Source: Sphyrna mokarran (Eukaryota). Taken from it: a stretch of DNA of 64,000 bases. The stretch spans positions 15,996,001 to 16,060,000 of the forward strand of contig JAGIQG010000019.1 of NCBI GenBank assembly GCA_024679065.1, given 5' to 3'. The position numbers were made by a program, and so were the translations under genes. This document shows, in pieces, positions 1 through 64,000 of the stretch. The stretch's first letter is position 1. Each line of letters starts with the position of its first letter. The notes under the pieces were generated by a model that had not been told where the DNA came from, did no database searches, and worked only from the letters and a program-made list of their open reading frames with translations.

Positions 1-29
1 TCTTGTTTCAAATTTGCTCCACTCCTTAG

Positions 30-796
30 GGCCAACAGCAATGACTCCATCAGGTATACCAATTGTTCCTGAGACGGCAATTACTGGTGAGTAGATCTCC
101 TTACATATTATAATTTGATATTAAGGTTGAGCAATTTGTAATTTAATACTCTGCAGCATTTTTTTTTTGTTAACTTGGACCAGCAGCAACTAGGGTGACA
201 GTAAATCCCATTGTTTCTGAAACTGCGAGTATTGAAGGGTGTATTCATTCGTATTGTGACAATAATATTTCAAGAACTTTGAATAATTAGCTTTTACAAG
301 CAAACAACATTTGAAACTTGTGAAATTTAACATTGTGTTGCTGAGAGCAGGTTCAACAATATTGTTGTTCCTTCAGGCAACATGCTGAGGAACTGTTCTG
401 AAGGGAAATCTCAAAATTTGAGTGAGGGAATTATTGTTGATATGCGAGATAGTTTATGGGTCATGTTTGATTCTTACTGAAGTGCAAGGAATTTCTGATT
501 GAATTTGACTTAAATAATGATGCCTATAATTAAACATTTACTGGGAAATGAATTACAGTAGTAGTGAATGAATACTTTGTCCAAATTTCTGTGCTATTCA
601 GGGCCAACAACTACTGCAGGAACAGGAGGATCGACAACTTCAGAGACCACTGTCAGTGGTGAGTTTGGGTTTTATTGTATTCACACATCAAATTAATTTA
701 TGTGCTTCTGGACCAATCTTGTTTCATTTTATCTCTGCTCTGTAGGGCCAATGACTGTGATAGGTACACTTCCTGTTTCTGAGAGTAGAATTACTG
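30..796 (+). CDS. Exons B 30-86, C 602-658, D 746-796 (51 nt)
   Basis: GPTAMTPSGIPIVPETAIT / GPTTTAGTGGSTTSETTVS / GPMTVIGTLPVSESRIT; AG/GT intact. Confidence 0.85.
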
Positions 797-27700: not shown

Positions 27701-30700
27701 ATGGGTGTATTGTCACAATAATATTTCAGAACCTTTAATAATTAGCTTCCACAAGCAAACAACATTTGATACTTGTGAACTTGAATTTTGTGTTGTTGAG
27801 AACAGGTCAGTGACATTGTCATTCCTTCAGGCAACATACCTGAGGAACTGTCCTGAAGGGGAACCTCAGAATTTGAGTGAAGGAATTATTGCTGATATGC
27901 GAGATAGTTCATGGGTCATGTCTGATCCTTACTGAGTTGCAAGGAATTCCTGGTTAAGAATTTGACTATGATAGTGATGCTTATAGCTAAACATTTCCTG
28001 AGAAATGAATTGCAGTCATAGTGAATAAACACTCTGTGCTGCTCAGGGCCAACACCAACTTCAGGAACTGGAGGACCAACAACTTCAGAGACCACCATCA
28101 GTGGTGAGTTTCGATTTATTGTACTCATCACATGAATTTAATTTGTATGCTTCATGGGCTAATCTTGTTTCATATTATGTGTGCTCTCTCTGGCCAATGA
28201 CAATGACTGTGACAGGTACACCTTCTGTTTCTCAGAGCAGAATTACTGGTGAGCAGAGCTTCTTTTGTGTTATAAGATGCTGTTAGTTTGGTGCTATTGT
28301 CATTTTTAACTTTACCGTAGGTCTGCAGTTACATTGGACCTGCACCACATAGCAGGACAGTCACTCTGATAGTTCCTGAAATTGTGATTAAGAATAATTG
28401 AATGTATTTTCAGTGCCATACAATGTTTGCAATGCTAAGGTGTCCCAGACAAGGGACATGCTGTTGGTGTGTCACTGTAGTTCATTGTATATTCAGTCCA
28501 TTCAGATGGAAGGGTTTGAACGTGTACCAATTGAGTTGTTCATATTGCTTTGGATAAGCATCTTCTTGTTTGAATATGCTTGTTTTTGCTTTGGCCTGAT
28601 GGTAGAATGGTTAACAGTTAGGAATTATTAATTGCTTTTATTTCAGTTTTTATACACATGTATTTTTCACTATAGAAGCTGTAAGCATATGCATGTTGGT
28701 GTTTCGCTTGTATTATTGCTAATTGATGCATATTCATGTTGAGACTGGAAGAGGTTTTCATTGAACGGAAATTGGAACAGTAAGTGCTACCTGGCACAAT
28801 AGATGTTTTGTGTCATCAACTATAACATACAGAAGTGGACAGTATTATTCAATACGATTATTAATAATGCAGATTGTGCGGCATGCCATGAAGTCAACTT
28901 GAGACATGAATTGCACCATTTGTGAATTTAAAAAGACAGTGATATGGCAGACCATTCAAACTTTCCATAAGCAATCACGGATCCTGGTTTTGAAATTCTG
29001 CGTTGCCATTTTGGAAGCGTATATTGAAACTTAAAATTTGATTTGTTTACATTTTAAAGAGTTAGTATTTTGGTGCTATTAACTTCAGATCACTAAATCC
29101 ATTTATTCGCACAAATGATGATCAATAAGGCATCAGGAGATTTGAAATGTACGATAATGTGTTTTGTTTATCTGTGACCGAGAGGCCTACTGGAAAGCAT
29201 CTCGTTTGTAGACTTGCAGAATGACAGTGTGTTTTATTTTGATTTGGCAGTATGATAAACCTTGGTGGTGAAATTTTTGTGCAGATGGACAGAAATAACT
29301 ATTGTCTCCAACAGATTAAATTCAAAGCAGTAAATTTCAATATCGTAATGAATTCCTGATTGGAAGCGTCACTCGTTCAGTGGGATTTTTGAAAGACACA
29401 CCTTATTCTTTGGAAAATTAATGATTTAGTTACTGTTAAAATTTCACTTTCACTGGCAAATATTCTCCAAATAATTTTGACAAAATTTAGTGTCATATTT
29501 GCTGACCCCATGTTGAATTTTTTGTAATTACCTGAAAAGTAGCTGGTTTTTGCAGACAACTTGGTTGAGGAGCTGTTCTGAATAGTGAGTGCTGCATGTG
29601 TGGAAGGTTATAATTAATTTTGTAATTTGCGTACCAATATTTTCCTTTCTCTTTGCCATTTGAGGCTTTGACTAATATAATGATGCTAGGATGAGCAAAA
29701 AATCGTGGGAAACAATTGCAGCAGTAACAGATAATTATTCTGTACAAATTCTGCTTTCCTTTAGGGCCAACACCATTTACAGAAACTGGAAGAGCTACAA
29801 CTTCTGAGACTATTGTCAGCAGTGAGTATTGTTTTTGGCATTTTTGTCAGCTGAAATTAATTTAATGTTAAATTAATATCAAATTAAATTAAATTAATAT
29901 GGATAGGTTAATGTTGTTTCAAATTTGCTCCACTCCTTAGGGCCAACAGCAATGACTCCATCAGGTGTATCAATTGTTCCTGAGACAGCAATTACTGGTG
30001 AGTGGATCTCCTTACACATTATAACCTAATATTAATTTCGAGCTATTTGTAATTTAATGCTGTGCAGCATTTTTTCTCTTACCTTGAACTAGTACCAACT
30101 AGGATGATAGTAAATCCCATTGTTTCTGAAACGAAGTATAATGATGGGTGTATTCATTCATGTTGTCACAATAATATTTCAAAACCTTGAATAATTAGCT
30201 TTCACAAGCAAATAACATTTGAAACTTGTGAAATTTAACATCATGTTTTGTATTGAGATCTGGATAGGCTAAGTCAGTGGGCGAGGATCTGGCAGATGGA
30301 CTATAACGTTGGCAAGTGTGAGGTTATCCACTTTGGAAGAAATAATAGTAAAAGGAACTATTATTTAAGTGATGAAAGATTACAACATGCTGCAGTGCAG
30401 AGGAACCTTGGTGTCCTTGTACATGAATCGCAAAAGTCTGTTTGCAGGTGATCAAGAAAGCAAATGGAGTGTTGGCCTTTATCACGAGGGGGATGGAGTA
30501 TAAAAGCAGGAAGGTCTTGCTGTAATTGTACAAGGCACTGGTGAGGCCGCAACTGGAATACTGTGTGTAATTTTGGTCCCCTTATTTGTGAAAGGATATA
30601 TTGGCCTTGGAGGGAGTACAGAGAATGTTCATCAGGTTGATTCTGGAGATGAGGGGGTTAGCTTATGAGGGGAGATTGAGTAGATTGGTTCTGTGCGCGT

Positions 30701-33700
30701 TGGTATTTAGAAGGCTGAGGGGAGATCTTATAGAGACATATAAGATAATGAAGGGCCTAGACAAGGTAGAAGCAGAGAGATTATTTCCATTTAGAAAGAA
30801 AACAAGAGTTAGAGGGCACAGCTTCAAAATAAGCAAGGGTCAATTTTGAACAAAGTTGAGGAGGAACTTCTCCTATCAGAGAATAGTGAATCTTCGGAAT
30901 TCTCTGCCCATTAAAGCAGTGGACACTACATCATTAAATGTGTTTAAGTCACAAGTAGATAGATTTGTGACCAATAAGGGAATTAAGGGGTTATGGGGAG
31001 TCACTGGGTAAGTAGAACTGAACCACTATCAGATCAGCCATGATCTTTTTGAGTGGCGGGGCGGGCTTGAGGGTTAGATGGCCTACTCCTGCTCTTATTT
31101 CTTATGTGTTGTTGAGAGCGGGTCAGTTATATTGCTGTTTCTTCAGGCAATATGACTGAGAAATTGAATCTGAGTGAGAGAATTACTGCTGATCTGCGAG
31201 ATAGTTTATGGGTCATGTTTGATCCTTATTGAGGTGCAAGCAATGCATGGTTAAGAATTTGACTAAGATAATGATGCTTATAATTAAACATTCCCTTGGA
31301 AATGAATTGCAGTAGTAGTGAATAAATACTCCGTCCAAATGTCTGTGCTGTTTAGGGCCATCAAGAACTGCAGAAACTAGAGGATCAACCACATCAGAGA
31401 CCACCATCAGTAGTGAGTTATGGTTTTATTGTACCCGCCACATTAAATTAACTTGTGTGCTTAGTGGACAAATGTTGTTTCATATTATCTCTGCTCTCTA
31501 GGGCTAATGGCAATGACTGTGACAAGTACATTTCCTGTTTCTGTGGGCAGAATTACTGGTGAGCAGAGCTTCTTTCATGTTATAAGCTGCTGTTAGTTTT
31601 GTGCTATTTGTGAGTTTTAACACTACTGTAGGTGTATAGTTTTGTTGGACCTGCACCAGGTAGCAGGGCAATCACTCAGTTTCCGAAAGTGTAACTGACA
31701 ATGATTGAATGTATTCTCAGTGTCATATAATGTTTGCGATGCCAAGGTGTCCCAGGCAAGAGACATATTGTTGGTGCATCACTGCAGTTCACTGTATTTT
31801 CAGTCCGTTCGGATGGAAGGCTTTGAATGTGCACCAGTTCAGTTGTTCCATATTGCTTTCAGTAGGCATTTTTTGTTTGAATGTGCTAGTTTTTGCTTTG
31901 TCCTGATGGTAAATTGTTAACAGATAGGAATTAATGATTTCTTTATTTCACATTTGCTTCTCAATGCAGAAGACATGCATTTTGGTGTTTCACTTGCCTA
32001 ACTGCTATTGGATGTATATTCATGATAAGACAAAAGAGGTTTTCGTTGAATGGAAATTGGAACAGTAAATGCTACATGACACAGTAGATGTCTTGCATTA
32101 TCAATCATAACATTCAGAAGAGGACAGTGTTATTGAATGTGATTATTAATGATAATGCAGGTTGTGCAGCATGCCCTGAAGTCAATTTGAGATATGAATT
32201 GCAGCATTTGTGAATTTGAAAAGATAATAATAAGGAAGACTTTCCAAACATTAATGAGCGTGAGTATATCTGGTCTTGACGTTCTGCATTTCTGTTTTAG
32301 AAGTGTATATTGAAATTTAAAATTTGATATATTTACATTTGCATTTTGAAGAGCTAGGATTTTGGTGCTATTGGATTTAGCAATCTAAAGTCATTTATTC
32401 AAATCAGTGATGATTGGTAAGGGATCAGGAGATTTGAGATGTATAATAATACATGGTTTGTTTGTAACCAAAAGGCCGAATGGAAAGCATTTATAGATTT
32501 GCAGAATGACAAGAGTCTTTTGTTTTGGTTCGGCAGTGTGATAGGCCTTGCTGGTGAAATTTATATGCAGACATACAGATATAATTATTCCTTCAAATTT
32601 ATTTTGTTAGAAGCAGTAAGTTTCAATATCATAGTGAATTCCTGATCTGAAATGTCACCTGTGAGATTTTTGAAAGGCATACTATTCTTTGGAAAATAAA
32701 TGATTTAGTCACTATTAAAATTTTACTTTCACTGGCAAATAATATCCAAATAATTTTGAGAAAATTTAGTGTCATACTTGTTGACCCCATTTTGAATTTT
32801 TTTTAATTGCTTGAAAAGTAGCTGGTTTTAGAAAGCAACTTGGTCAAGGACCTATTCTGAATGGTAAGCACTGTATTTGTGGAAGGGAATGATTAATTTT
32901 ATACTTAGTGAATGGATATTTTCTTTTCTCCTTCGCAATGTGGAACCATTTGCCACTTGGGGCTTTGACTGACATAATGATGCTAAGATGAACAAAAAAT
33001 CTTGCAGCATGAATGAATAAATATTTATTTTGTACAAATTCTGCTTCTCTCTAGGGCCAATACCATTCACAGGAACTGGAAGACCGACAACTTCAGAGAC
33101 TACTGTCAGTGGTGAGTCTTGTCTTTAGCATTCTTGTCATCTGAAATTAATTGATTTGATTGGTAGATTAATATTGTTTCAAATTTGCTCGACTACATAG
33201 GGCCAACAGCAATGACTACATCAGGTGTACCAACTGTTCCCGTGACAGCAATTACCGGTGAGTGCATCTCCTAGCATGTTATAACCCGCTGGTAATTTCG
33301 AGCTGTACATAATTTAATGCTCTGCAGCATTTTTTCCTGTTACCTTGCACCAGTACCAACTAGGATGATAGTAATTCCCATTTGTTTCTGAAACTGGGAG
33401 TAATTATGGGTGTATCCATTCACATTGTCACAATAATATTTCAGAATCTTGAATAATTGGCTTTCTCAAGCAAATAAAGTTTGAAACTTGTGAAATTTAA
33501 CATTGTGTTGCTGAGAGCAGGTCAGTGATATTGTTGTTCCTTCAGGAAACATGGCTGAGCAAGTGTCCTGAAGAGAAACCTCAGCATTTGAGTAAGAGAA
33601 TTATTGCTGATTTGTGGTAGTCTATGGATCATGTTTGATCCTTACTGAGGTGCAAGCAATACCTAGTGAAAAATTTGACGAAGATAATGCTTATAATTAA

Positions 33701-36700
33701 ACGTTTCCTTGGAAATAAAATGCAGTAGTAGTAAGTAAATACTCTGTCCATAATCTATGCTGTTCAGGACCAACAACAGCTGCAGGAACTGGAGGACCAA
33801 CCACTTCAGAGACCACCGTCAGTGGTGAGTTTCAGTTTTATCAAACTGCCACATTAAATCAATTTGTGTGCTTTGTAGACTAATGTTGTTTCATCTTATC
33901 TCTGCTCCCTAGGCCCAATGGCAATGACTGTGACAGGTACATTTCCTGTTTCTGTGAGCAGAATTACTGGTGAGCAGAGCTTCTGTGATGTTATGAGCTG
34001 TTGTTAGTTTTGTGCTTTTTGTAATTTTTAGCCTACACTAGTAGGTACAGTTATGTTGGACCTGCACCAGGTAGCAGGGCAGTCAGTCAGATTGTTAGTT
34101 AAAGCTTCAGAAACTATGATTTAATAAATTCTCAGTGTCATACAATGTTTGCGATTCCAAGGTGTCGCAGCAAAGGGACATGTTGTTGGTGCGGCATTGC
34201 AATTTACTATTTTCAGTCCGTTTAGATGAAAAGGTTTGAATGTGTACCAGTTGAGTTGTTTCATGTTGCTTTTTGTCAGCAATGTGCTTGTTTTTGCTTT
34301 GTGCTGAATGTGAAATATTCAACAGATAGGAATTAGTGATGGGTTTATTTCAATTTTTATACACATTTGTTTCTCGGTGCAGAAACTGTAAACACATGCG
34401 TATTGGTTTTTCACTTGCCTGCTAATTGATGCATATTCATGTTGACACTGAAAGAGCCTTTCATGAATGGAAATTGGAATAGTAAATGCTACCTAATAGA
34501 GTAGATGTCTTGCATTATCAATTATAATGTTTGAAAAAGGCAGTGTTATTGAATATGATTATTGATCATAATGTAGGCTGTGTCAGTGATGTCCGCTTGA
34601 GACCCTGAATGGCAGCATTTAGGAATTTAAAAAGATGATAAACAATAAGGCAGATTGTCCAAACTTTAATGAGCACTAGAAGAGCTTGCTTTTAATATTC
34701 TGCATTGCTGTTTTGGAAGCATATATTGAAATTTAAAATTTAACATATTTTCATTTGCATTTTGAAGAGATAGGATTTTCTTGCTATTGAATTTAGATTA
34801 CTAAATGCAATTATTCACATGAACGATGATTGGTAAGGAACCTGGAGATTTGAGATGTACAACAATGCAAGATTTATCAGTGACCGAAAAGCCTACTGGA
34901 AAGGTCCTCATTCGTAGCCTTGTGGAATGACAGAACCTTTTATTTTGATTCGGCAGTATGATAGACCTTGCTGGTGAAATTTATATGCAGATGGACAGAC
35001 ATAATTATTCCTTCCAACAGAATAAATTCAAAGCGGTAAATTTCAGTATTGTAGTGAATTCCTGATCAGAAATGCCACTTGTTCAGTGGGATTTTGAAAG
35101 ACAAACTTTATTCTTTGGAAAACAAGTAATTTAGTCAGCTTTGAAATTTCACTTTTACTGGCAAATAACATCCAAATCATTTTGAGAAACTTTAATGCTA
35201 CATTTGCTGACTCTTATATTTTTTGTAATTACCTGATAAGTAGCTGGTTTTTGAAGGTAACTTGGTCCAGGAACTATTCTGAATGACAAGTGCTGCATTT
35301 GTGGAAAGGAATGATTAATTTTATAGATTGCATATGGATATGTTCATTTTTTTCTCTACAATGTGGAATGATTTGCCATTTGAGGCTTTGACTGACATAA
35401 TACTAAATTGAATAAAAATTCTTGGGAAACAATTGCAGCATGATGGAATAAATATGCTGTACAAATTCCACTTTTCTTTAGGATTGACACCATTCGCAGG
35501 AACTGGAAGACTTAGAACTTCAGGGACTACTGTCAGTGGTGAGTATTGTTTTTAGCATCCTCATCACCAGAAATTAATTTATTTGATTGGTAGATTAATA
35601 TTGTTTCAAATTTGCTCGATTACATAGGGCCAACAGCAATGACTCCATCAGGTGTACCACCTGTTTCCGTGACAGCAATTACTGGTGAGTAGATCTCCTT
35701 ACACATTATAACCTGATATTCATGTTGGGGAATTTGTAATTTAATACTCTGCAGCATTTTTTTCTAATACCTTGGACCAGCACCAAGTCAAATGATAGTA
35801 AATTGTTTCTGAGACGAAGATGGGTGTATTTTCTCATCGTCACAATAATATTTGAGAGCCTTAAATAATTAGCTTTCACAAGCAAACAGCATTAGAAACT
35901 TGGGAAATTTAACACTGTGTTGCTGAAAGCAGGTCATTGATATTGTTATTTCCTCGGTAATCTGTAAACTGTCTGTGCTGTTATATGCTCTGTCTGAGGC
36001 CAGTACTCTTCATTCACCTAACGAAGAACAGAAAACTCAAAAGCTTGTGAATTTACTATCAAATAAATTGGTTGGACTTAAACCTGATGTTGTCAGACTT
36101 CTTACTGTGATTCCCTCAGGCAACATGGCTGAGGAACTGATCTAAAGGGAAACCTCAATTAGAATGAGGGAACTATTTCTGATCTGCAAAATAGTTTATG
36201 GGTCATGTTTGATCCTTACTGAGGTGCAAGCAATTCCTAGTTAAGAATTTGACTAAGATAATGATACTTATAACTAAACTTTTCCTTGGAAATGAATTGC
36301 AGTAGTAGTACATAAATAATCCATCCCAATCTTCATGCTGTTTAGGACCAGCCAGAACTGCAGGAACTGGAGGACCAACAACTTCAGAGACCACCATTAG
36401 TGGTGAGTTTCAGTTTATTGTACTCACCACATGAAATTAATTTTTGTGCTTCCTGAACTAATGTTATTTCATATTATTTATGCTCTTAGGCCCAGTGGCA
36501 ATGACTGTGACAGGCACACTTCCTGTTTCAGAGAGCAGAATTACTGGTGAGCAGAGCTTCTTTCATGCTATAAGCTGCTGTTGGTTTTGTGCTATTTGTG
36601 GTTTTTAGCTCAACTATACATGTACAGTTACGTTGGACCTGCATGCGGGAGCAGCGCAATCACTCAGTTTCCAAAACTGTGATTAACAATCATTTGAATG

Positions 36701-39700
36701 TATTCTCAAATCCTTATAATGTTTGTGATGCCAAGGTGTGCCAGGCAAGGAACATGTTGGTGTGTCATTGCAGTTTTCAGTATTTTCAGTCTATTCAGAT
36801 GGAAGGGTTTGAATGTATATCATTTAAGTTTGTTCCATATTGCTGTTGATAACCATCATCTTGTTAGCATGTGCTTATTTTTGCTTTGTGGTGATGATAA
36901 AATGGTCAACAGATTGGAATTATTGATTGCTTTCTTTTAGTTTTTGTATATATTTGCTTCTCAGTTCTGAGACTGTAAAAACATGCATGTTGATGTTTCT
37001 CTTGTCTTATTGCTAATTGATGCATATTCATGTTGACACTGACAAAGCTTTTCATTGAAGGGAAATTGGAATATTAAGTGCTATCTGACAGAGTAGATGT
37101 CTTGCATTATTAAGTATAATGTTTGGGAGAGGATAGGGTCATTGAATATGATGATTGATGGAAATACAGGTTGTGCAACGTATCTGTGAAGTCAGCTTGG
37201 GACTGTGAATGGCAGCATTTACGAATTTAAACAAAAATAAGGCAGACTGTCCAAACTTTAATGAGCAGTCCGAAATGCTGGTTTTGACACTCTGCATTGC
37301 TGTTTTGGAAGCGTATATTGAAATTTAAAGTTTGATATATTTACATTTGCATTTTGAAGAGCTAGTATTTTGGTGCTATTGACTTCAGAACATTAAATCC
37401 ATGTATTCGCATGAACGATGATCGATAAAGCATCAGGAGATTTGAGATGTACAATTTTGCATGGTTTTTCTGTGACTGAAAGGACTAAGTTGTAGACTAG
37501 CAGAATGACAGACTGTGTTTGTTTTATTTTGATTTGGCAGTATGGATAAACTTTGCTGGTGAAATATATGAGGAGACAGATAGAAATAATTATTCCTTCC
37601 AACAGAATAAATTCAAAGCAGTAAATTTCAATATCATAATGAATTCTTGATGGGGAAATGACAGTGAGATTTTTGAAAGACACACCTTATTCTTTGGAAA
37701 ATAAATGATTTAGCCACTTTTAAAACTTCATTTTTACTGACAAATACTGTCCAAATAATTTTGGGAAAATTTAGTGTCACATTTGCTGACCCCATGTTGA
37801 AGTTTTTATAATTGCCTGAAAAGTAGCTGGGTTTTGAAAGCAACTTGGTCGAGGACCTTTTCTGAATGGTAAGCGCTGCATTTGTGGAAGTGAATAATTA
37901 ATTTTATAGTTTGCATTTGGATATTTTCCTTTTCCCTTCGCAATGTGGAAGCATTTGCCACTTGAGGATTTGACTGACATAATGATGCTAAGATGAATAA
38001 AAAAATCATGGGAAACAACTGCAGCAGTAATAAATAATTATTCTGTACAAATTCTCCTTTTGATTAGGGCCGACACCATTCACAGAAACTAGAACACCTA
38101 CAACTTCACAGACTACTGTCAGTGGTGAGTATTGTTTTTGGCATTTTCGTGTCTGAAATTAATTTATTTGATGGGTAGATTAATACTGTTCCAAATTTGC
38201 CCCACTACTTAGGGCCGACAGCAGTGACTCCATCAGGTGTACCAACTGTTCCTGAGACAGTAATTACTGGTGAGTGCATCTCCTTACACATTACACATTA
38301 TAGCCTGATATTAATATTGAGCAATTTGTAATTTAACACTCTGCAGCATTTTTTGATACCGTAGACTAGCACTAATTAGGATGATTGTAACTCTCATTTC
38401 TTCTGAAACAAAGATGGGTGTATTTTCTCATTGTTACAATAATATTGTATTAAGAGCCTTAAATAATTAGCTTTTACAAGAAAACAATATTGAAAACTTG
38501 TGAAATTTAATGTTGTTGTGTTGCTGAGAGCACGTCAATGATATTATTATTCCCTTAGCAACATGGCTGAGGAACTGTTCTGAAGGGAAACCTCAGAATT
38601 AGAGTGAGGGAATTATTGTGATATGCGAAATTGTTTCTGGATCATGTTTGATTCTTACTGAGGTGCCAGCAATTCCTAGTTAACAATTTGACTCAGATAA
38701 TGATGCTTATAACTAAACATTTCCTTGGAAATGAATTGGGGTAGTAGTACATGAATAATCCGTTCCAATTTTCATGCTGTTTAGGACCAACAAGAACTGC
38801 AGGAACTGGAGGACCAACAACTTTAGAGACCACCATTAGTGGTGAGTTTCAGTTTATTGTACTCACCACATGAAATTAATTTTTATGCTGCCTGGACTAA
38901 TGTTATTTCGTATTATTTCTGCTCCTAGGCCCAATGACAATGACTGTGACAGGTACACTTTCTGTTTCAGAGAGCAGAATTACTGGTGAGCAGAGCTTCT
39001 TTCATGTTAAAAGTTGCTGTTGGTTTTGTGCTGTTTGTGGTTTTTTTTTTGCTTGACCATACATTTACAATTACGTTGGATCTGCACGCGGAAGCAAGGC
39101 AGTCACTCAGACAGTTTCTGAAACTATGATTTAGCAATCATTGAAAATGTATCCTCAGTGCCATACGATGTTTGTGATCCCAAAGTGTCCAAGGCAAGTG
39201 ACATGTTGGTGCATCATTGCAGTTCTCTGTATTTTCAGTCCATTCAGTTGGAAAGGTTTGAATGTGTACCAGTTGAGTTGTTCCATATTGCTTTTGATAA
39301 GCATCTTCTTGTTTTTGCTTTGTGATAATGGTAGAATTGTCAACAGAAAGGAATTATTGATTGCCACCTTTCAGTTTTAGCATACATTTGCTTCTCAGTG
39401 CAGAGACTGTAAAAACATGCATGTTGGTGTTTCTCTTGTCTTATTGCTAATTGATACATATTCATGTTGACACTGACAGAGCTTTTCATTGAAGGGAAAT
39501 TGAAATATTAAGTGCTACCTGACAGAGTAGATATGCTTGATAATGCAAGACAACGTTTGGGAGAGGATAGTGTTATTGATTATGATTAGTGATTAAAAAT
39601 ATAGGTTGTGCAACGTAACAGAGAAGTCAGCTTGAGACTGTGAATGGCAGCATTTATCAATTTACAAAGATAATAATAAGGCAGACTGTCCATCTTTAAT

Positions 39701-42700
39701 GAGCAGTCATAGATGCTGGTTTTGACATTCTGCATCGCTGTTTTGGAAGCGTATATTGAAATTTAAAACTTGATATATTTACATTTTGTGTTTTGAAGAG
39801 GTAGGATTTTGGTGCTGTTGACTTCAGATCATTAAATCCATTCATTCGCATGAATGATGATCCAAAAAGCATCAGGAGATTTGGGATGTACAATAATGCA
39901 TTGTTTGTCTTTGACCAAAAGGCCGAATGGAAAGCACTTCATTTGTAGACTTGCAGAACGACAGAACCTTCAATTCTGATTCAGTAGTATGATAGATCTT
40001 GCTGGTGAAATTTATGTGCATATATAATTTTGGGAAGTTTTACTGCCACATTTGCTGACCCCATGTTGAAGTTTTTGTAACTGCCTGAAAAGCAGCTGAT
40101 TTTTGCAGTCAGCTTGGTCGAGGACCTGTTCTGAATGGTAAGCACTGCATTTGTGGTACGGAATAATTAATTTTGTAGTTTGCATATAGATATCTTCCTT
40201 TTTCCTTTGCAACGTGGAAGCATTTGCCCCTTGAGGCTTTGACTGACGTAGTGATGCTAAGATGAATTAAAAATCTTGGGAAGCAATTTCACTGTTAATG
40301 AATAGATATTCTGTACAAATTCTGCTCCTCTTTAGGGCCAACACCATTCACAGGAACTGGAGCTAGGAATCCTAGCTCTTCAAAACACAAGTGAAAATAT
40401 ATCAAATTTTAAATTTTGATATATGCTTCTAAAACAGAAATGCAAAATGTCAAAACTAGATATATCCGCGCTCATTAATGTTTGGAAATTCTTCCTTATT
40501 ATCTTTTCAAGTGCACAAACGTTGCAATTCATGGTCTCAAGTTGACTTCAGGGCATGCCGCACAACCTGCATTATTATTAATAATCGTATTCAATAACAC
40601 TCTCCTTGTCTGAATCTTAATTGATAATGCAAAACATCTACTGTGTCAACAGAAAGGAATTATTGATTGCCACCTTTCAGTTTTAGCACACGTTTGCTTC
40701 TCAGTGCAGAGACTGTAAAAACATGCATGTTGGTGTAACTTCAGAGACTACTGTCAGTGGTGAGTCTTGTTTTTAGCATCCTTGTCATCTGAAATTAATT
40801 GATTTGCTTGGTAGGTTAATATTGTTTCAAATTTGCTCAGTATCGTAGGGCCAACAGCAATGACACCATCAGGTGTCATGATGTAAAGATGCCGGCGTTG
40901 GATTGGAGTGGTAAGAACTCAGTAAGAATTTAGCAACACCAATTATTAATCCAACCGATTTATTTGATAGTAAAATAGCGAGCTTTCAACACTCCCGTGT
41001 CTTCATCAGGCAATTGCAGTGTTCTGGTCTGCAATAGCACACATCAGCACAGACAGTCAGAGATTGCTGATTAGAATGCGAATCCTTACATCTAACCTGC
41101 TATTCAAGTGTTAAAGTGGCTAACAATGTGTGTGAAGGGGATCCTGAGCATTGTTAGCCACTTTAACACTTGAATAGCAGGTTAGATGTAAGGATTCGCA
41201 TTCTAATCAGCAATCTCTGACTGTCTGTGCTGATGTGTGCTATTGCAGCCCAGAACACTGCACTTGCCTGATGAAGACACGGGAGTGTTGAAAGCTCGCT
41301 ATTTTACTATCAAATAAATCGGTTGGATTAATAATTGGTGTTGCTAAATTCTTACTGAGTTCTTACCATCAGGTGTACCAAGTATTCCTGAGACAGCAAT
41401 TACCGGTGATTAGATCACCTTAGATATTATAACCTGATGATAATTTGAGCTATTAGTAATTTAATACTCTGCAGCATTTTTTCTGTTAACTTGGACCAGC
41501 AACAACTTGGATGATAGCAACACCCATTGTTTCTGACACTGGGTGTAATGATGGGTGTATTAGTTCACATTGTGACAATAATGTTTCAGAATCTTGAATA
41601 ATTAGCTTTCACAAGCAAACAACAATTGAAACTTGTGAAATTTAATGTTGTGTTATTGAGAGCAGGTCAACAATATTGTTATTCCTTCAGTCAACATGGC
41701 TGAGGAACTGTTCTGAAGGGAAACGCCAGAATTTGAGTGAAGGAATTATTGCTGATCTCGATCATTTATGGGTCATGTTTTTTCCTTGCTGAGGTGCAAG
41801 CAATACCTGGTTAAGAATTTGACTAAGATAACAATGCTTATAATTAAACATTTCCTTGGAAATAAATTACAGTGGTAGTGAATAAATGCTCTGTCCAAAT
41901 GTCTGTGCTGTTTAGGGCCAACAAGAACTGCAGGAACTGGAGGACCAACCACTTCAGAGACCACCATCAGTGGTGAGTTTCAATTTAATCGTACTCACCA
42001 CATGAAATTAATTTGTGTGCTGTATGGACTCATCTTGTTTCCTATTATCCCTGCTCCCTAGGCCCAATGGGAATGACTGTGACTGGTACACTTCCTGTTT
42101 CTAGGAGCAGAATTACTGGTGAGCAGAACTTCTTTCATTTTAAAAAGCTGTTGTTAGTTTTGCATTATTTGTGATTTGTAACGTTACTTTAGGCCTACGG
42201 TTAGGTTGGGCCTGCACCAGGTAACAGGGCAGTCCCTCCGTTTCTGAAAATGCGAGTAATAATGATTGAATGTATTCTCAATGACATACGATGTTTTCAA
42301 TGCCAAGGTGTCCCAGGCAAGGGATGTGTTGTGGGTGCGTCATTGCAGTTCACTGCATTTTCAGCCCAATTGTTCCATATTGCTTTTGATCAGTATCCTT
42401 TTGTTTGAATGTGCTTGTTTTTGCTTTGTCCTGATATAAAATGGTTGACAGATAGGAATTAGAGTTTTATTTATTTTAGTTTTTCTACACATTTGCTTCT
42501 GAATGCAGAAGTTGTAAAGACGTGCATTTTGGTGTTTCACTTGCCTCACTGCTATTGGATGTATATTCATGTTTAGATGCAAGAGCTTTTCATTGAACAG
42601 AAATTGGAATAGTAAATGCTGCCTGACACAGTAGATGTCTTGCATTATCAATTATAAGATTCAGACAAGGAGAGTATTATTGAATACGATTATTAATAAT

Positions 42701-44255
42701 AATGCAGGTTGTGCGGCATGCCCTGAAGTCAACTTGAGACCATGAATTGCAGCATTTGTGCACTTGAAAAGATAATAATAAGGAAGACTTTCCAAACATT
42801 AATGAGCGCGGATATATCTGGTTTTGACATTTTGCATTTCTGTTTTAGAAGCATATATCAAATTTAAAATTTGATATATTTTCACTTGTGTTTTGAAGAG
42901 CTAGGATTTTGTGCTATTGACTTTAGATGGCTAAATCCATTCATTCGCATCAGTGATAATTGATAAGGGATCAGGAGATTTGAGATGTACAATAATGCAT
43001 AGTTTTTGTGGCCGACAGACCGAATGGAAAGCATTTGTAGATTTACAGAATAACAGAGTCTTTTGTCTTGGTTCAGCAATATGATAGGCCTTGAAATTTA
43101 CATGCGGACATACAGACATAATTATTCCTTCCAACAAAATAAATTTGAAGCAGTAAATTTCAGTATTATAATGAATTCCTGTTCTGGAATGTCACCTTGG
43201 GATTTTTGAAAGACGTAATTTATTATTTGGAAAATAAATGATTTAGTCACTGTTAATATTTTACTTTCACTGGCAAATAATATCCAAATAATTTTGAGAA
43301 AATTTAGTGTCACACTTGCTGACAACATGTTAAATGTTTTGTAATTGCCTGAAAAGTAGCTGGTTTTTGAAGGCAACTTGGTTGAGGACCTGTTCTGAAT
43401 GGTATGCGCTGCATTTGTGGAAGGGAATGATTAATTTTGTAGTTAGTGAATGGATAATTTCCTTTTCTTCTTTGCAATGTGCAAGCATTTGCCACTTGAG
43501 GCTTTGACTGACATAATGATGTTAAGATGAATAAAAAATCTTGGGAAGCAATTGCAGCATGAATGAATAAATATTTTGTACAAATTCTGCTTCTCTTTAG
43601 GGCCAACACCATTCATAGGAACTGGAAAACCTACAACTTCAGAGACTACTGTTAGTGGTGAGTCTTGTCTTTAGCATCGTCGTCATCGGAAATTAATTCA
43701 TTTGATTGGTAGATTAATATTGTTTCAAATTTGCTCGATTATATAGGGCCAACAGCAATGACTCCATCAGGTGTACCAACTGTTCCCAAGACAGCAATTA
43801 CTGGTGAGTAGATCTCCTTGCACATTATAACTTGATAAGCAATTTGTAATTTAATACTCTGCAGCATTTTTCCTGTTAACTTGAACCAGCACCGACTCGG
43901 ATGTTGTAACTTCCATTGTTTCTGAAATGAAGGGCCCAATTTTACCATTTTCATTCTAATTCTGGGCGTAGTACAGATCCAACTCTGAAATTTGCGTTTT
44001 GGCAACCCCATACACTCTCAGCCATTTCCAGTCCGAGTTGCATTGTAAGCAGAGCTTATTGGAACAATTGGAGCTCTGAACCACACATGCGCAATTAACA
44101 AAAAATTGGAATTGCTCCCACGCTGCAGAAAATGGAGAAATGGACCTGGAAGCAAAAAGCGGGAGCAAGGCTGTATCTTGATGGGCTGGGAGAGAGGGTG
44201 GGGAAGGATGGAGGTGGTAAGATATATCGTGTGTGTGTGTGTATTGGGGGTTGGA

Positions 44256-44290
<35 letters not shown>

Positions 44291-47200
44291 ACTTCCCTCC
44301 TTATCCACTCTCCACCAGCCAGACTGATCGCTACCCCTGCCATCCTCCCACCCCCACTGATCGTCCACAGAGTGGCAGAGAACCCCCCTAACCTCCCCCC
44401 CAGAGATCCATCTGTCACCCCCGGCCACCAAAGATCCATCTTATCCGCCTCCCGTGTCCGTCCTCCTACCTCCCAAGACAACGATCTGACCTCACACCCA
44501 CCCTTCCCCCACAACAACGAACTTGCCCCTCTCCCCCGCTATCCAGAGAATGGTCTGGCCTCACTCTACCTCCTCTCCAGAAGAACATTTGACCCGTCTC
44601 CTCCCCTCCCCTCCTCCCACACCACGAGACAACAATCAAACTCCCCCCACCACTAGATAATGATCAGCTCTCCTCCAACCACCAGACAATGATCAGCAAC
44701 CAACCCCGCCTCCCAAACACCAGACAATGATCAAACCCCTCCTTCCTCCCACAGCCAGAGATACATCTGATTCCCCTCTCCTCTTCCTCTCCCTCTCCCC
44801 TCCAACCAGAGAATAATCTGAACAGTATCAATCTCACCCCCATCATTGATTTGAGTCGAAGAGCCATTACAAACACTGAACTCACTCTTCAGAGGCTGGA
44901 GCACCTGACTCAGACTTTTATTCAGCAGGTCCCTAAAGCATGGTTCTGGATTGGTAAACGTGATGCTAAAGGGGGAAATACTGACAGAGTTGGGTGAGCA
45001 GTTCATTAATTCAATTTAAATGCATGCAAATGCATTTAAATTGTCATTGGGCACGGAACAGATCCCTGAGATTCGCAGGTCTTGGTAAGGTGGTGATCTG
45101 CGTGGACTTGGATGCAAATCGCAATAAAGGCCTCACACCCGAATTTACCACAATTTTGTGCCTGAAAATGGACACAAGTTGTTCACTAAATTGGGCCGGA
45201 GAGCTATCGTGGATGCATTTTCTTATTATCACTATAATATTTCAGAGCCTTGAATGATTAACTTTCACAAGCAAGGAAGATTTGAAACTTGTGAAATTTG
45301 ACATTGTGTTTGCTGAGAGCAGGTCAATGATATTGCTATTCGTTCAGGCAACATAGCTGAGGAACTATTCTGAAGGGAAACCTCAGTATTTGAGCGAGGG
45401 AATTATACTTGATCTGCAAAATCCTTTTTGGGTCATGTTTGATCCTTACTGAGGTGTAAGCAATTCCTGGTTAAGAATTTGGCTAAGATAATGATGCTTA
45501 TAACTAAACATTTCCTTGGAAATGAATTGCATTAGGAGTGAATAAATGCTGTGTCCAAATGTCTGTGCTGTTTAGGGCCAACAAGAACTGCAGGAACTGG
45601 AGGACCAACCACTTCAGAGACCACCATCAGTGGTGAATAACTTCAATATCATAATGAAATCCTGATCAGAAATGTCACTTGTTCAGTGGGATTTTTGAAT
45701 GACACACTATTCTTTGGAAAACAAATGATTTAGTCAGCTGCAAAATTTCACTTTTACTGGCAAATAACATCCAAATCATTTTAAGAAAATTTAAGCCACA
45801 TTTGGTGATTCCATGTTGATTGTTTTGTAATTACTTGAAAAGTAGATGGTTTTTGGAGGCAACTTGGTTGAGGAACTGTTCTGAATGACAAGTGCTGCAT
45901 TTGTGGACAGGAATGATTAATTTTCTAATTTGCCTATGGATATTTTCCTTTTTCTTACACAATGTGGAACCATTTGTCCTTCAAGGCTTTGACTGACATA
46001 ATGATGTAAAGAAGAACAAAAAATCTTGGGAAACAATTGCAGCAATATTGAATAAATATTCTGTACAAATTCTATTTTTCCTTTAGGGCCGACACCATTC
46101 ATGGGAACTGGAAGACCTACAACTTCAGAGACCACTATCAGTGGTGAGTATTATTTTTGGCATTCTTATCAGCTGAAATGAATTTATTTGTTGAGTAGAT
46201 TAATATTATTTCAAATTTGCTCCATTGGTTAGGACGAATAGCAATGACTCCATCAGGTGTACCAATTGTTCCTGAGACAGCAATTACTGGTGAGTGGATC
46301 AGCTTACATATTATAAGCTATGATAATTTTGAACTATTAGTAATTTAATACTTTGCAGCATTTTTTTCTGTTAACTTGGATCAGCAACAATTTGGGTGAT
46401 AGCAACACTCATTGTTTCTGACACTGGGATAATGATAGAAATATTAATTCACATTTTCACAATAATGTTTCAGAATCTTGAATAATTAACTTTCACAAGC
46501 AAACAACATTTAAAACTTGTGAAATTGAACATTGTGTTGTTCAGAGCAGATCAATGGTGTTATTATTCCTTCAGTCAACATGCCTGAGGAACTGTTCTGA
46601 AGGGAAAACCCAGAATTTGAGTGAGGGAATTATTGTGATCTTAAGAATGTTTATGGGTCATGTTTGATCTTTGCTGAGGTGCAAGCAACACCTGGTTAAG
46701 AATTTGACTAAGATAATGATGCTTATAATTAAACATTTCCTTGGAAATGAATTGCAATAATAGTGAATAAATACTTTGTCCAAATGTCTGCACTGTCTAG
46801 GACCAACAAGAACTGCAGGAACTGGAGGACCAACCACTTCAGAGACCACCATCAGTGGTGAGTTTCAGTTTTATTGTAATCACCACATCAATTAATTTGA
46901 GTGCTTCATGAACTCATCTTGTTTCCTATTATCTCTGCTCCCTAGGCCCAATGGCAATGACTATGACAGGTATACTTCCCGTTTCTGACAGCAGAATTAC
47001 TGGTGAGCAGAGCTTCTTTCATATTGTAAGCTGCTGTTAATTTTGTGCTATTTGTGTTTTTTAACTCTACTATAGGTCTACAGTTCATTAGACCTGCACC
47101 AGGTAGCAGCGTAGTCATAAGAACATAAGAAATAGGAGCAGGAATAGGCCATCTAGCCCTTTGTGCTTGCCTTGCTAGTCCCCTTCAATATCTTATGTCT

Positions 47201-50200
47201 TTATAAGATCCCCACTCAGACTTCTAAACTCCAATGAGTACAGACTCAGTTTATTCAATCTCTCTTCATAAGCTAACCCCTCATCTCCGATATCATCCTA
47301 ATGAACCTCCTCTACACTCCCTCCAAGGCCAATATATCCTTCCGCAAGTGCGCTGACAAAACTGCACACAGTACTCCAGCTGCAGTCTCACCAATACTCC
47401 GTACAGTTGCATCAAGACCTCCCTGCTTTTATATTCTATCCTCTTCGCTATAAAAGGCCAACATTCCACATGCCTTCTTGATCACCTGCTGTACCTGCAG
47501 ACTGGGTTTTTGCGATTCGTGCACAAGGACCTCTGAATCCCTCTGCATTGTAGCCCGCTGCACTTTTTGCCTTTTAAATAACAATCCCTCCTACTATTAT
47601 TTCTACCAAAGTGGAGAACCTCACATATGCTAACATTATACTCCATCTGCCAGGTTCTCACCCACCCACTCAACCTATCCAGATCTCTCTGCAGATTTTC
47701 CACATCCTCCACGCAATTTGCTTTTCCACTCATCTTTCTGTCATCAGCAAATTTTGTTACCCTACACTCAGCCCCCTCCTCCAGATCATCTATGTAAATG
47801 GTAAACAGATGAGGCCCCAGCACTGATTCCTGTGGCACTCCACTAGTCACCAACTGCCAATCAGAAAAGTTCCCTTTGATTCCAACTCTCTGCTTCCTAT
47901 GAGGCAACCAGTTCTGTATCCACGCTAACACCTTACCCCCAACTTGGTGCATCCTAACATTTTGCAGCAACCTTTTGTGAGACACCTTATCAAAACACCA
48001 CAGGGAGGGGCGGGGGGGGTGCGAAGTGAGGGGGGTGGGTGGTGGGGTCACTCAGATTGTTGATCACTATTTTAGAAACTATGATTGAATGTATTCTCAG
48101 TGCAACACGATATTTGCAAGGCCAAGGTATCCCAGGAAAGGAACATGTTGGTGCGTCATTGCAGTATTTTCAATCCATTCAGATGGAAGGGTTTAAACGT
48201 ACACCAATTGAGTTATTCCCTATTGCTTTTGGTCAGCATCTTCTTGTATGAATGTGGTTCTTTTTGCTTCTTGATGAATGTAAAATGTTCAACAGATAGG
48301 AATTAGTGATGCTTTATTTCATTTTTTATACACATTTGTTTCTCAGTACAGAAACTGGAAAGACATGCATGTTGGTGTTTCACTTGCCTGCTAATTGGTG
48401 CATATTCATGTTGATACTGAAGGAGCTTCTCACTGAATGGAAATTGGAATAATAAATGCTATCTGATAGAGTAAACATCTTGCATTATCAACTATAATGT
48501 TTGAAAGTGGGCAGTATTGTTGAATATGATTATTGATCATAATGTAGGTTGTGTCCGTAATATACATGAATGGCAGCATTTAGGAATTTAAAAAGATTGG
48601 CAGACTGTCAAAATTTAATGAGCACTGGAAGATCTGGTTTTGACATTCTACATTGCTGTTTTGAAAGCTTATATTGAAATTTATTACTTAACACATTTTC
48701 ATTTGCATTTTGAAGAGCTAGGATTTTGGTGCTATTGATTTTAGATCACTAAATGCATTTGTTCAGATGAACGATGATCGGTAAAGCATCCGGAGATTTG
48801 AGATGTACAATAATGCATGGTTTGTCTGTGACCGAAAAGCCTACTGTAAAGCTCCTCATTTGAATGCCTGCAGAACGACAGAACCTTTTATTTTGATTTG
48901 GCAGTATGATAGACTTTGCTGGAGAAATTTATGTGCAGATGGACAGACATAATTATTCCTTCCAACAGAATAAATTCAAAGCAGTAAATTTCAATATTGT
49001 AATGAATTCCTGATCAGATTTTGAAAGATACACTTTATTCTTCGGAAAACAAATGATTTTGTCAGCTTTTACATTTCACTTTTTTACTGGCAAATAACAT
49101 TCAAATCATGTTGGGAAAATTTAATGCTCCATTTGCTGACTCCATGTTGAATTTTTTTGTAATTGTCTGAAAAGTAGCTGGTTTTTGTAGACAACTTGGT
49201 CAATGAGCTGTTCTGAATGGTAAGTGCTGCATTTGTGGAAGGGAATGATTAACTTTGTAATTTGTGAATGGATATTTTCCTTTTCTCTTCGTAATATGGA
49301 ACCATTTGCCATTTGAGGCTTTGACTGACATGATGCTAAGATGGATAAAAAATCTTGGGAAACAATTGTAGCAGTAATGAATAAATATTCTGTACAAATT
49401 CTGCTTTTTAGGGCCGACACAATTCGCAGGAGCTAGAAGGCCTACAACTTCAGAGACTACTATCAGTAGTGAGTATTGTCTTTTGCATCCTCATCACCAG
49501 AAATTAATTTATTTGGTGGGTAGACTAATATTGTTTCAAATTTGCCCCACTACTTAGGGCCAACAGCAATGACGTCATCAGGTGTACCAACTGTTCCTGA
49601 GACAGCAATTACTGGTTAGTGGATCTCCTTACACATCATAACCTGAAGTTAATTTTGAACTTTTTGTAATTTAATAGTCTGCAGCATTTTTTCTCTTACT
49701 CATCAACTAGAATGATAGTAAATCCTGTTGTTTCTGAAACAAAGAGAAATGATGTATGTATTCATTCACATTGTCACAATAATATTTCAGAACATTGAAT
49801 AATTAGTTTTCACAAACAAACAACATTTGAAACCTGTGAAATTTCATGTTGTGTTGCTGACAGCAGGTCAACGATATTGTTATTCCTTTAGAGTTTGAGT
49901 GACAGAATTATTGCTGATCTGCGAGATAGTTTATGGGGCATGTTTGATCCTTACTGAGGTGCAAGCAATATCTGATTAAGAATTTGACTAAGATAATGAT
50001 GCTTATAATTAAACATTTCCTTGGAAATGAATTGCAGTCATAGTGAATAAATACTCTGTCCAAATGTCTGTGCTGTTTAGGACTAACAAGAACTGTAGGA
50101 ACTGGAGGACCAACAACTTCAGAGACCACCGTCAGTGGTGAGTCTCGGTTTTATCATACATGCTACATTAAATCAATTTGTTTGCTTTGTGGACTAATGT

Positions 50201-53200
50201 TGCTTCATGTATCTCTGCTCCGCAGGGCCAATGGCAATGACTGTGACAGGTACACTTCCTGTTTCTGCGAGCAGAATTACTGGTGAGCAGAGCTTCTTTG
50301 ATGTTAAAAGCTGCTGTTAGTTTTGTGCTATTTGTAATTTTTAACAGTACTGTCGGTCTAGTTACGTTGGACCTGCATGAGGTAGCAGGGCCGTCACTCA
50401 GATATTTTCCAAATATGTAACTAACAATGATTGAATGTATTCTTTGTGCCATAGAATGTTTGTGCTGCCAACGTGTCCCAGGCAAATTGTTGGTGCATCA
50501 TTGCAGTTCATTATACTTTTAGTCCGTTCAGATGGATAGGTTTGAATGTGTACCAATTGAGTTGTTCCATATTGCTATTGGTAAGCATCTTCTTCTTTGC
50601 AATTATTTGGTTTTGGTTTGCGCTGATGATAAAATGGTCAACAGATAAGAATTATAATTACTTCATTTCAGTTTTTGTATATATTTGCTTCTCAGTGCAG
50701 AAACTGTGAAAACATGCATGTTGATATTTCTCTTATTACTAACTGATGCATATTCATGTTGACACTAACAGAGCTTTTCACTGAAGGGAAATTGGAATAT
50801 TGAGTGCTTTCTGACAGAATAGATGTCTTGCATTATCAATTATAGCATTCAGAAGAGGACAGTGTTATTGAGTATGATTATCAATGATAATGAAGATTGT
50901 GTGGCATGCCCTGAAGTCAGCTTGAGACCATGAATTGCAGAATTTGTGAATTTGATAAGGAACGCTTTCCAAACATTAATGGGCACAGGTCGAAGCTAGT
51001 TTTGACATACTGCTTTGTTGTTTTAGAAGTGTATGTTGAAATTTAATGTTTGATATATTTAATTTGTATTTTGAAGAGCTAGGATTTTGGTGCTATTTAC
51101 TGTAGATTGCTAAATCTATTTATTTGCATGAATGATGATTGATACATGATCAAGCGATTTAAGATGTACAATACTGCATGATTTGTTTGTGATTGAAAGG
51201 CCAAGTGGAAAAAATCTCATTTTGTAGACTTGTAAAATGACAGAATCTTTTATTTTGGTGCGTGAGTATGATAGACCTTGGTGGTGATATTTTATACGCA
51301 GACAGTCATAATTATTGCTTACAACAGAATAAATTCAAAGCCGTAAATTTCAATATCATAATGAATTCCTGACCAGAAAATGCCATTTGTTCAGTGGGAT
51401 TTTTGAAAGACAAATTTTACCCTTTGGAAAACAAATGATTTAGTCAGCTTTAAAATTTCACTTTCACTGGCAAATAATATCCAAATAATTTTGAGAAAAT
51501 TTAGTGCCATGTTTGCTGACCCCATGATGAATCTTTTGTAATCGCCTGAAAAGTAGCTGGATTTTGAAGGTAATTTGGTCGACGAACTGTTCTGAATGGT
51601 AAGTGCTGCATGTGTGGAAGGAAATGATTAATTTTATAGTTTGCATATGGATATCTTCCTTTTTCCTTAGCAGTGTGGAATGATTGCCACTTGAGGCTTT
51701 GACTGACATAATGATGCCAGGATGAATAAAAAAATCTTGGGAAACAATTGCATCGGTAATGAATAAATATTCTGTACAAATTCCGCTTCTCTTTAGGATC
51801 GACACCATTCACAACAACTGGAAGACCTACGACTTTAAGGACTACTGTCAGTGGTGAGTGTTGCTTTTGCATCCTCGTCCCCTGCAATTAATTTATTGGA
51901 CAGGTAGATTAACATTATTTCAAATTTATTTGATTACATTGGGCCAACAGCAATGACTCCATCAGGTGTACCAATTGTTTCCGAGACAGCAGTTAGTGAT
52001 GAGTAGATCTCCGTACACATTATAACCAGATATTCGTGTTGGGGAATTTGTAATTTAATACTCTGCAGTATTTTTTCTGATAGCTTGGACCAGCACCAAC
52101 TAGGATGATAGTAAATCCCATTTCTTTTGAAACAAAGATGGGTGTATTTTCTCATTGTTGCAGTGATATTTCAGAGCTTTAAATAATTAGCTTAGAAACT
52201 TGCGAAATTTAATGTTGTGTTGCTGAGAGCAAGTCAATGATATTGTTATTCCCTCATGCAACATTACTGAGGAACTGTTCTGATTTGAAACCTCAGAATT
52301 GGAGTGAGGGAATTATTGCTGATATGCGAAGTAGTTTCTGGATCATGTTTGATCCTTACTGAGATGCAAGGAATTCCTGGTTAAGAATTTGACTCAGATA
52401 ATGATGCTTATAACTAAACATTTCCTTGGAAATAAATTGCAGTAGTTGTACATCAGTAATCTATCCCAATTTTCATTCTGTTTAGGACCAAGAACTGGAG
52501 GACCAACAACTTCAAAGACCACCATCAGTTGTGAGTTTTCAGTTTATCACACTCACCACATGAAATTAATATTTATGCTTCCTGCTGTAATGTTATTTCA
52601 CATTAATTTTGCTCCTAGTCCCAGTGGCAATGACTATGACTGGTACAGTTCCTGTTTTTGAGAGCAGAATCACTGGTGAGTAGAGCTTCTTTCATTTTCA
52701 AAGTTGTTGTTGGTTTTTTGCTATTTGTGGTTTTTTTTTTTTTGCTCAACCATACGTCTACAATTACACTGGACCTGCATGCGGGACCAGGGCATTGACT
52801 CAGAGTTTCAAAAATGTGATTAACAATGATTGAATGTATTCTCAGTGCCATACGATGTTTGTGATGCCAAGGTGTCCCAGGCAAGGGACATATAGGTGCG
52901 TCATTGCAGTTCACTATATTTTCAGTCCACTCAGGTCATTGGTTTTGAATGTGGATCAGATGAATTGTTCCATATTGCTTTTTGTAAGCATTTTCATGTT
53001 AGCTTGTGCTTGTTTTTGGTTTGTGATGATGGTAGAATAGTCAACAGATAGGAATTATTGATTGCCTTCTTTCAGTTTTTGTATATATTTGCTTCTCAGT
53101 ACAGAAACTGTAAAAACATGCATGTTGATGTTTCTCTTGTCTTATTGCTAATTGATGCATATTCATATTGGCACTGACAGAGCTTTTCATTGAATGGAAA

Positions 53201-63922: not shown

Positions 63923-64000
63923 GTGAGTAGATCTCCTTAAACATTACAACGTGCTATTAATTTAGAGCTTTTTGTAATTTAATACTCTGCAGCACTTTTT

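Follow-up and report, generated by a model that had tools for sequence, protein, structure and literature searches.

A young Penelope-like foldback in a mini-exon of a putative shark gel-forming mucin, probably skipped rather than respliced

In Sphyrna mokarran, exon B, a 57-nt mini-exon in a gene that probably encodes a gel-forming mucin, is interrupted by 500 nt of repeat DNA. The insert is best read as a young, truncated foldback of a Neptune-type Penelope-like element that landed in a redundant mucin exon, with exons A and B then probably being skipped in frame rather than respliced. As the AG|GT in the duplicated target stands at its chance rate and the exon is likely skipped, the event is regarded as an ordinary insertion. 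A preliminary description of the same DNA had presented it as an intron gain in progress, a wording that the analysis does not support: the AG|GT occurs no more often than chance predicts, and foldback is the form in which the family routinely inserts. The window is the whole stretch of DNA analysed, 64,000 nucleotides of contig JAGIQG010000019.1 (15,996,001 to 16,060,000), and its coordinates are used throughout unless another locus is named.

Anatomy of the insertion

The features of exon B and of its insert are the following.

40849..40872, + strand: 5' half (24 nt) of a type B exon, a 57-nt phase 1-1 PTS mini-exon, with its acceptor AG at 40847-40848
40860..40879, + strand: predicted 8-bp hairpin with a 4-nt loop, in which 40860-40867 pairs with 40872-40879, covering the donor from -1 to +7
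40865..40876, + strand: left copy of the 12-bp target-site duplication (TSD), with the candidate donor CAG|GTGTCA (GT at 40873-40874) and its last 3 nt common with the tail end of the element
40874..40908, - strand: 35-nt Penelope-like 'tail', on one arm only and outside the long stem (compare PMC8557442 and PMC11167929)
40909..41128, - strand: left arm, an antisense 3' pseudo-LTR, with the + strand donor-like sequences GTG|GTAAGA (GT at 40911) and TCA|GTAAGA (GT at 40922)
41129..41148, no strand: 20-nt loop, which is the loop of a short hairpin internal to the element; the arms join there with a 9-nt overlap
41149..41368, + strand: right arm, a sense 3' pseudo-LTR without the tail, with the would-be branch point and pyrimidine tract, all stem-paired
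41365..41376, + strand: right TSD copy, with the candidate acceptor AG at 41371-41372 and its first 4 nt common with the element
41373..41405, + strand: 3' half of exon B (33 nt), followed by the degraded donor CCG|GTGATT

The 12-mer ACCATCAGGTGT is found in the window solely at 40865-40876 and 41365-41376, with the repeat ending there on both sides, so the earlier claim of a 12-bp TSD copying the internal CAG|GT of the exon stands. The insert (40873-41372) measures 500 nt, starting with GT and ending with AG, and its removal precisely yields, as had been proposed, an in-frame exon of 24 + 33 = 57 nt that reads PTAMTPSGVPSIPETAIT after the split Gly codon. It is composed of two head-to-head copies of the 3' end of the element, one tailed and one tailless, set between the duplications. 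Only these two pseudo-LTR ends are present, without any ORF, and the TSD ends overlap element sequence by TGT (3 nt) on one side and by ACCA (4 nt) on the other.

The two arms of 220 nt each (40909-41128 and 41149-41368) differ at two mismatches (41014/41263 and 41028/41249) and enclose the 20-nt loop, in agreement with the stem first described. The RNA fold of 40820-41440 reaches -452 kcal/mol (z = -47), and hairpin and TSD are both far beyond chance. The stem had further been credited with juxtaposing the two candidate splice sites. It is real, but the sites are not flush with it, as 36 nt, mostly element tail, separate the donor from the base of the stem. The insertion is recent, as the nearest copies of the arms match them at 99.5-100% identity. 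A tandem genomic duplication was ruled out as its origin, the insert being foreign repeat DNA, and a DNA transposon or MITE was ruled out because the arms run on into an RT ORF in other copies.

Identity of the element

The genome was searched with the left arm, giving 43 matches from the best 40 of 145 candidates. In longer copies, an ORF with RVT_1 and GIY-YIG domains precedes the arm sequence, which forms their 3' terminal repeat. All three ORFs tested carry both (RVT_1 E 2e-9 to 3e-8; GIY-YIG E 2-3e-4), the GIY-YIG scores of 21.5-22.2 bits falling slightly below the Pfam cut-off of 22.6 with the motif visible, and the Penelope label given earlier is thereby confirmed. A CX4CxxC linker lies upstream of the GIY-YIG core, and two Cys residues are located inside the core. 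Neptune and Nematis elements possess a CX2-5CxxC linker between RT and EN that is absent in Penelope and Poseidon (PMC8557442), and the CX4CxxC of the family falls within this pattern. The insert can be assigned, on these sequence features, to the 3' end of a Neptune-type Penelope-like element (RT plus GIY-YIG).

The family resembles Neptune/Nematis-type EN+ elements in the order RT then GIY-YIG, the linker Cys residues, the inverted pseudo-LTRs and the short TSD (PMC8557442, PMC3846280, PMC11167929), as well as in having one arm about 35 nt shorter and a one-sided tail of 30-40 nt. Indeed, an inverted truncated copy with a 30-40-bp tail belongs to the anatomy of Penelope-like elements (PMC8557442), inverted pseudo-LTRs are accompanied by 8-10-bp duplications (PMC3846280), and the tail is bounded by two reverse-transcription start sites, both target strands being cut and extended (PMC11167929). 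The TSD differs in length, with 8-10 bp in rotifer elements (PMC3846280) and 10-15 bp in the shark family.

An Rfam scan of five loci returned no hammerhead match at E <= 1, and its four matches were all under the gathering score. By eye, a hammerhead-like CUGAUGA-stem-GAAA core can be seen in the arms at about 41265-41300, with a stem I that does not close canonically. A U2 snRNA-like sequence at another locus (L003:611-763, - strand; 42.7 bits for a gathering score of 46) is probably a pseudogene. Older relics of the 3' end of the element lie in array introns of the window at 23584-23969 (78%) and 35968-36107 (71%), and a 1.6-kb copy (96%) is located at about +153.8-155.4 kb. About 1.1 kb separate a 705-nt foldback copy (L002:1056-1761) from a FAM221A/B exon downstream of it (L002:2841-3011, E 5e-28), so that hairpins of this size do sit in introns of conserved genes.

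Foldbacks and duplications across the family

The family survey covered 39 other copies, those that match the tail end best, the best 40 of 208 candidates having been scored. These copies (L051-L089) are the youngest ones, picked by likeness through the tail end, TGT included. An inverted second arm, which stops about 35-50 nt before the tail end is reached, is present in 26 of the 39, a TSD of 10-15 bp in 31 (12 bp in 14 of them), and the inverted arm together with an adjacent TSD in 25. The foldback is the routine insertion shape of the family. Long perfect inverted repeats can arise as sequencing artefacts, and the hairpin could in principle have been made by a foldback read during assembly. 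This explanation is extremely improbable in view of the clean 12-bp TSD, the asymmetry of the tail, the two arm mismatches and the 25 of 39 independent loci that are built alike. The derivation of the two arms from distinct pseudo-LTR variants was also considered and rejected, the same base being found at the tested site in 25 of 30 scorable tail arms and in all scorable opposite arms (L051-L089).

The far TSD copy also ends with TGT(C), the complement of the tail end, in 24 of 31 cases, a count biased by the selection for TGT. Such ends suggest primer-template pairing in vivo at both ends of the insertion, in a sample that was itself selected through TGT. An anole Poseidon element was described as starting non-homologously in vitro, whereas 24 of 31 TSDs of the shark family match the tail end, again in a TGT-biased sample.

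AGGT is contained in one of the 31 other family TSDs, compared with 2.9% of local 12-mers and 3.1% of those ending in TGT, and ACCT, the opposite-strand form, also in one of 31; both cases lie in apparent coding sequence of what we take to be LINEs. Moreover, a latent CAG|GT is an ordinary internal feature of type B exons, found in 45 of 54 copies. The AG|GT in the TSD of exon B is at chance rate, and the family is without proto-splice-site preference. With AG|GT in 1 of 31 TSDs for a chance rate of about 3%, this is not an introner family.

On the opposite strand, a GTAAGA donor stands at the start of the element, and in eight of 31 copies (L056, L057, L058, L066, L068, L069, L078 and L081) ACAG comes after the unpaired tail. 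From sequence, that orientation seems better equipped than the one in the window for imprecise intron formation, and the family may be seeding imprecise introns elsewhere in sharks.

The host mini-exon array

1..64000, + strand: part of a 180-kb host array of 57-nt phase 1-1 PTS mini-exons of types A to D, with a unit of about 2.4 kb

The array spans about -50.4 kb to +128.8 kb (contig about 15,945,600-16,124,800) and was resolved into 233 clusters corresponding to 231 copies, the broken A and B being each counted twice. Of these, 212 are intact, whereas 17 of the 229 copies other than the broken A and B are without AG, without GT, out of frame or stop-bearing, a figure in which a few may be miscalled, exon boundaries having been set automatically. 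The array tolerates exon loss, as seen from these 17 broken copies. Among intact exons, single-step changes to a stop are found for 0 of 18 possible ones and missense changes for 165 of 444 (p = 0.0005), in a test that excluded the stop-bearing copies at 66674 and -31391; included exons therefore appear to be policed against stops. Missense and silent changes show no difference (p = 0.32).

Upstream of the array and on the same strand, TIL (E 1e-7), VWD (a fragment, E 2e-4) and Mucin2_WxxW (E 4e-14) domains were detected, 124 of 415 flanking ORFs having been scanned. The CysD exon ends in phase 1, and a shark mucin model matches it at 84% identity. Strand, order and phase suggest that the array belongs with these TIL/VWD/CysD exons, and its host is probably a gel-forming mucin with a PTS domain of about 231 mini-exons. 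Eight further, paralogous CysD-like matches at 16.28-16.96 Mb of the same contig form a gel-forming mucin cluster. No C-terminal VWD or cystine-knot exon was found among 61 of 217 downstream ORFs, scanned up to 35 kb or less from the array end. The CysD query retrieved two shark mucin models among 89 candidates, neither containing the array, and the closest annotated model stops at the CysD exon directly before it. A protein query made of exons C and D gave 45 candidates with none at E <= 1, which is weak evidence. Other observations on the array are an 11-kb block occurring near-identically at about +80, +91 and +102 kb, and C-rich tandem repeats with a period of about 40 nt in introns of the window (13957-14505 and 25846-25971).

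The mammalian mucin domain is typically a single long exon, and multi-exon PTS domains have a precedent in PMC5789918 (for mucins in general, see PMC4948705). In Xenopus MucXS/Otogl, too, TIL, VWD and CysD precede a PTS domain that is spread across many exons (PMC5789918). The shark array differs from the mucins of that source by its about 231 uniform 57-nt exons, its four-type cycle and its extent of 180 kb. A literature search on tandem-repeat exons of shark mucin PTS domains found no paper.

Splice sites of the interrupted exon

Donor strength was expressed as the pairing energy with the U1 5' end, a crude proxy for a trained splice model, using the motif which we take to be that of the U1 5' end, while acceptors were compared by pyrimidine count. 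Precise removal of the 500 nt requires four sites, of which the B acceptor is intact. For the new donor CAG|GTGTCA the value is -6.7 kcal/mol; the 212 intact donors have a median of -9.2, and 12 of them do no better than the new one. The original B donor CCG|GTGATT scores -5.4 kcal/mol, level with the weakest intact ones (6 of 212 as weak or weaker), and is found in one of 56 B copies, CTG|GTGAGT being the form in 39. The new acceptor, with 10 pyrimidines in 15 nt for an array median of 11, is ordinary, and a competing AG in the right arm (41358-41359), out of frame and also stem-paired, lies 13 nt upstream of it. The Thr codon context of the restored B junction is found in 0 of 54 intact B copies.

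The fold prediction gives an unpaired probability of 0.0 over 40872-40878 and 41340-41367. The final three pairs of the predicted donor hairpin (40860-40879) are contributed by the insert, and this fragment is unexceptional, 17 of 200 shuffles folding as well. Both caveats attached to the first reading, namely that the donors GTGTCA and GTGATT are weak and that the pyrimidine tract is inside the stem (41340-41367 predicted fully paired), were borne out. That reading had left aside the TAA and the stronger donor brought by the element, the donor hairpin and the destroyed exon A. RNA structure over a pyrimidine tract or a donor blocks U2AF65 or U1 (PMC7404189, section 4.3), whereas inverted repeats can also bridge splice sites (section 4.1). 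The bridging examples given there draw the signals closer; in exon B, the signals sit inside the duplex.

Splicing of the 500 nt as the main product, with the stem bridging the TSD-derived sites, would make a precise new intron. The GT-AG ends restore the exon exactly, the acceptor has an average pyrimidine count, duplication of AGGT is an accepted route of intron gain (PMC3443670; the preliminary description was right to call on it, as it is textbook matter), and introners co-opting both target sites are known (bioRxiv 10.1101/2022.06.06.494994). Such an outcome is nevertheless very improbable, for it needs four sites at once with three of them weak or buried, and it faces a stronger donor 38 nt downstream, a rival AG 13 nt before the acceptor, an AG|GT at chance frequency and an exon A already broken. 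The intron-gain reading is geometrically possible, and what speaks for it amounts to a chance AG|GT, which leaves it a slim prospect. Low-level precise splicing could coexist with skipping.

The stronger competitor is the element donor GTG|GTAAGA at 40911, which at -8.0 kcal/mol is the top of the 37 GTs in 40849-41420, the new donor being joint fourth. It stands 38 nt downstream of the new donor and behind an in-frame TAA (40884-40886, + strand) within the element tail. Exons ending at the 40911 and 40922 donors would be 62 and 73 nt long, out of frame and with the stop included. If the B acceptor were joined to one of these GTAAGA donors before the second arm is made, exon B would act as a poison exon leading to NMD, and the allele would be partly or wholly null; the broken exon A of 424 nt could act likewise. 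The rank of the 40911 donor, its predicted partly open state before the second arm exists and the apparent policing of exons against stops (0 of 18 compared with 165 of 444, p = 0.0005) favour this outcome. It is held to be unlikely all the same, as both element donors lie inside the 220-bp stem after folding, a null allele would hardly last through two successive lesions in one unit, and two stop-bearing copies (66674 and -31391), outside the 0/18 test, do exist in the array.

The neighbouring exon A, probably broken earlier

40336..40759, + strand: exon A, split by about 370 nt derived from neighbouring introns, with an intact donor at 40760

The sequence splitting exon A is made of a piece (40368-40648) that is an inverted copy of 42624-42908 (95.8%) and a piece (40644-40736) that is a direct copy of 39338-39430 (97.8%). 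The inverted piece comes from 2.3 kb downstream and the direct one from 1.3 kb upstream, and these templated insertions look like the result of template switching during repair. From its own acceptor to its own donor, exon A is 424 nt long, out of frame and stop-containing, and no simple reading brings the two halves in frame with both of these sites. For the 3' remnant, the best acceptors are out of frame, and the frame is kept only via weaker ones (48 and 15 nt). Its strong donor lies 89 nt upstream of the exon B acceptor.

Between the exon A pieces and their templates there are 8 differences in 373 positions, and between the element arms and the copies nearest to them 1 in 498 (Fisher p = 0.006). 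The break of exon A therefore probably came first, an age argument that does not hold if the pieces derive from a diverged allele or a since-lost unit. The unit into which the element then inserted would no longer have been in use.

The remnant of exon A also bears on whether half of exon B could be retained, either the 24-nt left half through the donor at 40873 or the 33-nt right half alone, with the frame kept. In favour of this, each half is phase 1-1 with a length divisible by 3, the original donor of this copy (-5.4) is outscored by the internal one (-6.7), and an 89-nt intron still runs from the A remnant donor to the B acceptor. Against it, each half would be a microexon whose splice site is weak or buried, and inclusion of the left half would need the broken exon A to be handled in frame, so that half-exon inclusion is judged quite doubtful.

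Proposed course of events

The skipping of exons A and B, which is the preferred reading, can be arranged as a sequence of steps; the insertion anatomy behind it is observed, and every splicing step is inferred. A staggered 12-bp cut would have opened the target in exon B. Reverse transcription would have started from both 3' ends of the target, at the tail end in one case (TGT overlap) and about 35 nt inward in the other (ACCA overlap), and the two products would have joined at the internal hairpin of the element. Self-priming at that hairpin would give the same shape (PMC3846280). In the transcript, the stem would zip from the 20-nt loop during synthesis of the second arm, hiding the branch point and the pyrimidine tract. 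With a weak and paired new donor, a degraded old donor and two halves reduced to microexons of 24 and 33 nt, the spliceosome would join exon D (38929-38985) to exon C (41916-41972). As all array exons are phase 1-1, this D-to-C skip would keep the frame and cost the mucin two 19-residue repeats out of about 230.

Several points weigh against skipping. The new acceptor is ordinary on sequence alone (10 of 15 pyrimidines for a median of 11), the strong donor of the A remnant 89 nt upstream could still pull in the left half of exon B, and inverted repeats are able to bridge splice sites (PMC7404189). Furthermore, the donor hairpin is matched by 17 of 200 shuffles, and the U1 energy is a crude proxy.

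If skipping holds, the case matters little, being one more foldback that is tolerated since symmetric mini-exons can drop out. If precise splicing were true, exon B would provide one of the rare recent intron gains in vertebrates, and Penelope-like elements would join the intron-making transposons. In either case, exon B offers a clean natural substrate to ask whether a duplicated AG|GT is sufficient when a long stem covers the branch point. The side results are maybe worth more, namely a very young shark Penelope-like family, with junctions that point to primer-template pairing on either side, and the roughly 231 mini-exons of the probable gel-forming mucin.

Comparison with known intron-gain systems

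A literature search on a Penelope insertion spliced out of an exon in a shark found no paper. An apparent lack of recent vertebrate intron gains is noted in PMC12130899. The word 'Penelope' is absent from the main texts of PMC12130899, PMC11282704 and bioRxiv 10.1101/2022.06.06.494994, whose supplements could list such a case.

In the AGGT-insertion route (PMC3443670), the TSD likewise supplies AG|GT on both sides, and removal would be precise. The same source indicates that elements inserted in AGGT may be spliced by pure chance. Exon B differs from this route in that the use of its sites is a candidate one, in that donor, branch point and pyrimidine tract are predicted to be paired, and in that stronger out-of-frame competitors are present.

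Introners (PMC12130899, bioRxiv 10.1101/2022.06.06.494994, PMC11282704) are also repeated mobile elements with TSDs and inverted ends that occur in exons, and in some of them both splice sites are co-opted (bioRxiv 10.1101/2022.06.06.494994). The insert of exon B shares with them GT-AG ends whose removal restores the coding sequence. As for accessibility, its donor, branch point and pyrimidine tract are predicted to be paired, and as for similar introns at many exon sites, the family gives AGGT in 1 of 31 TSDs and ACCT in 1 of 31. Thus, whereas introners are families recurrently found as spliced introns, the shark case is a single exon hit in a family with AG|GT in 1 of 31 duplications.
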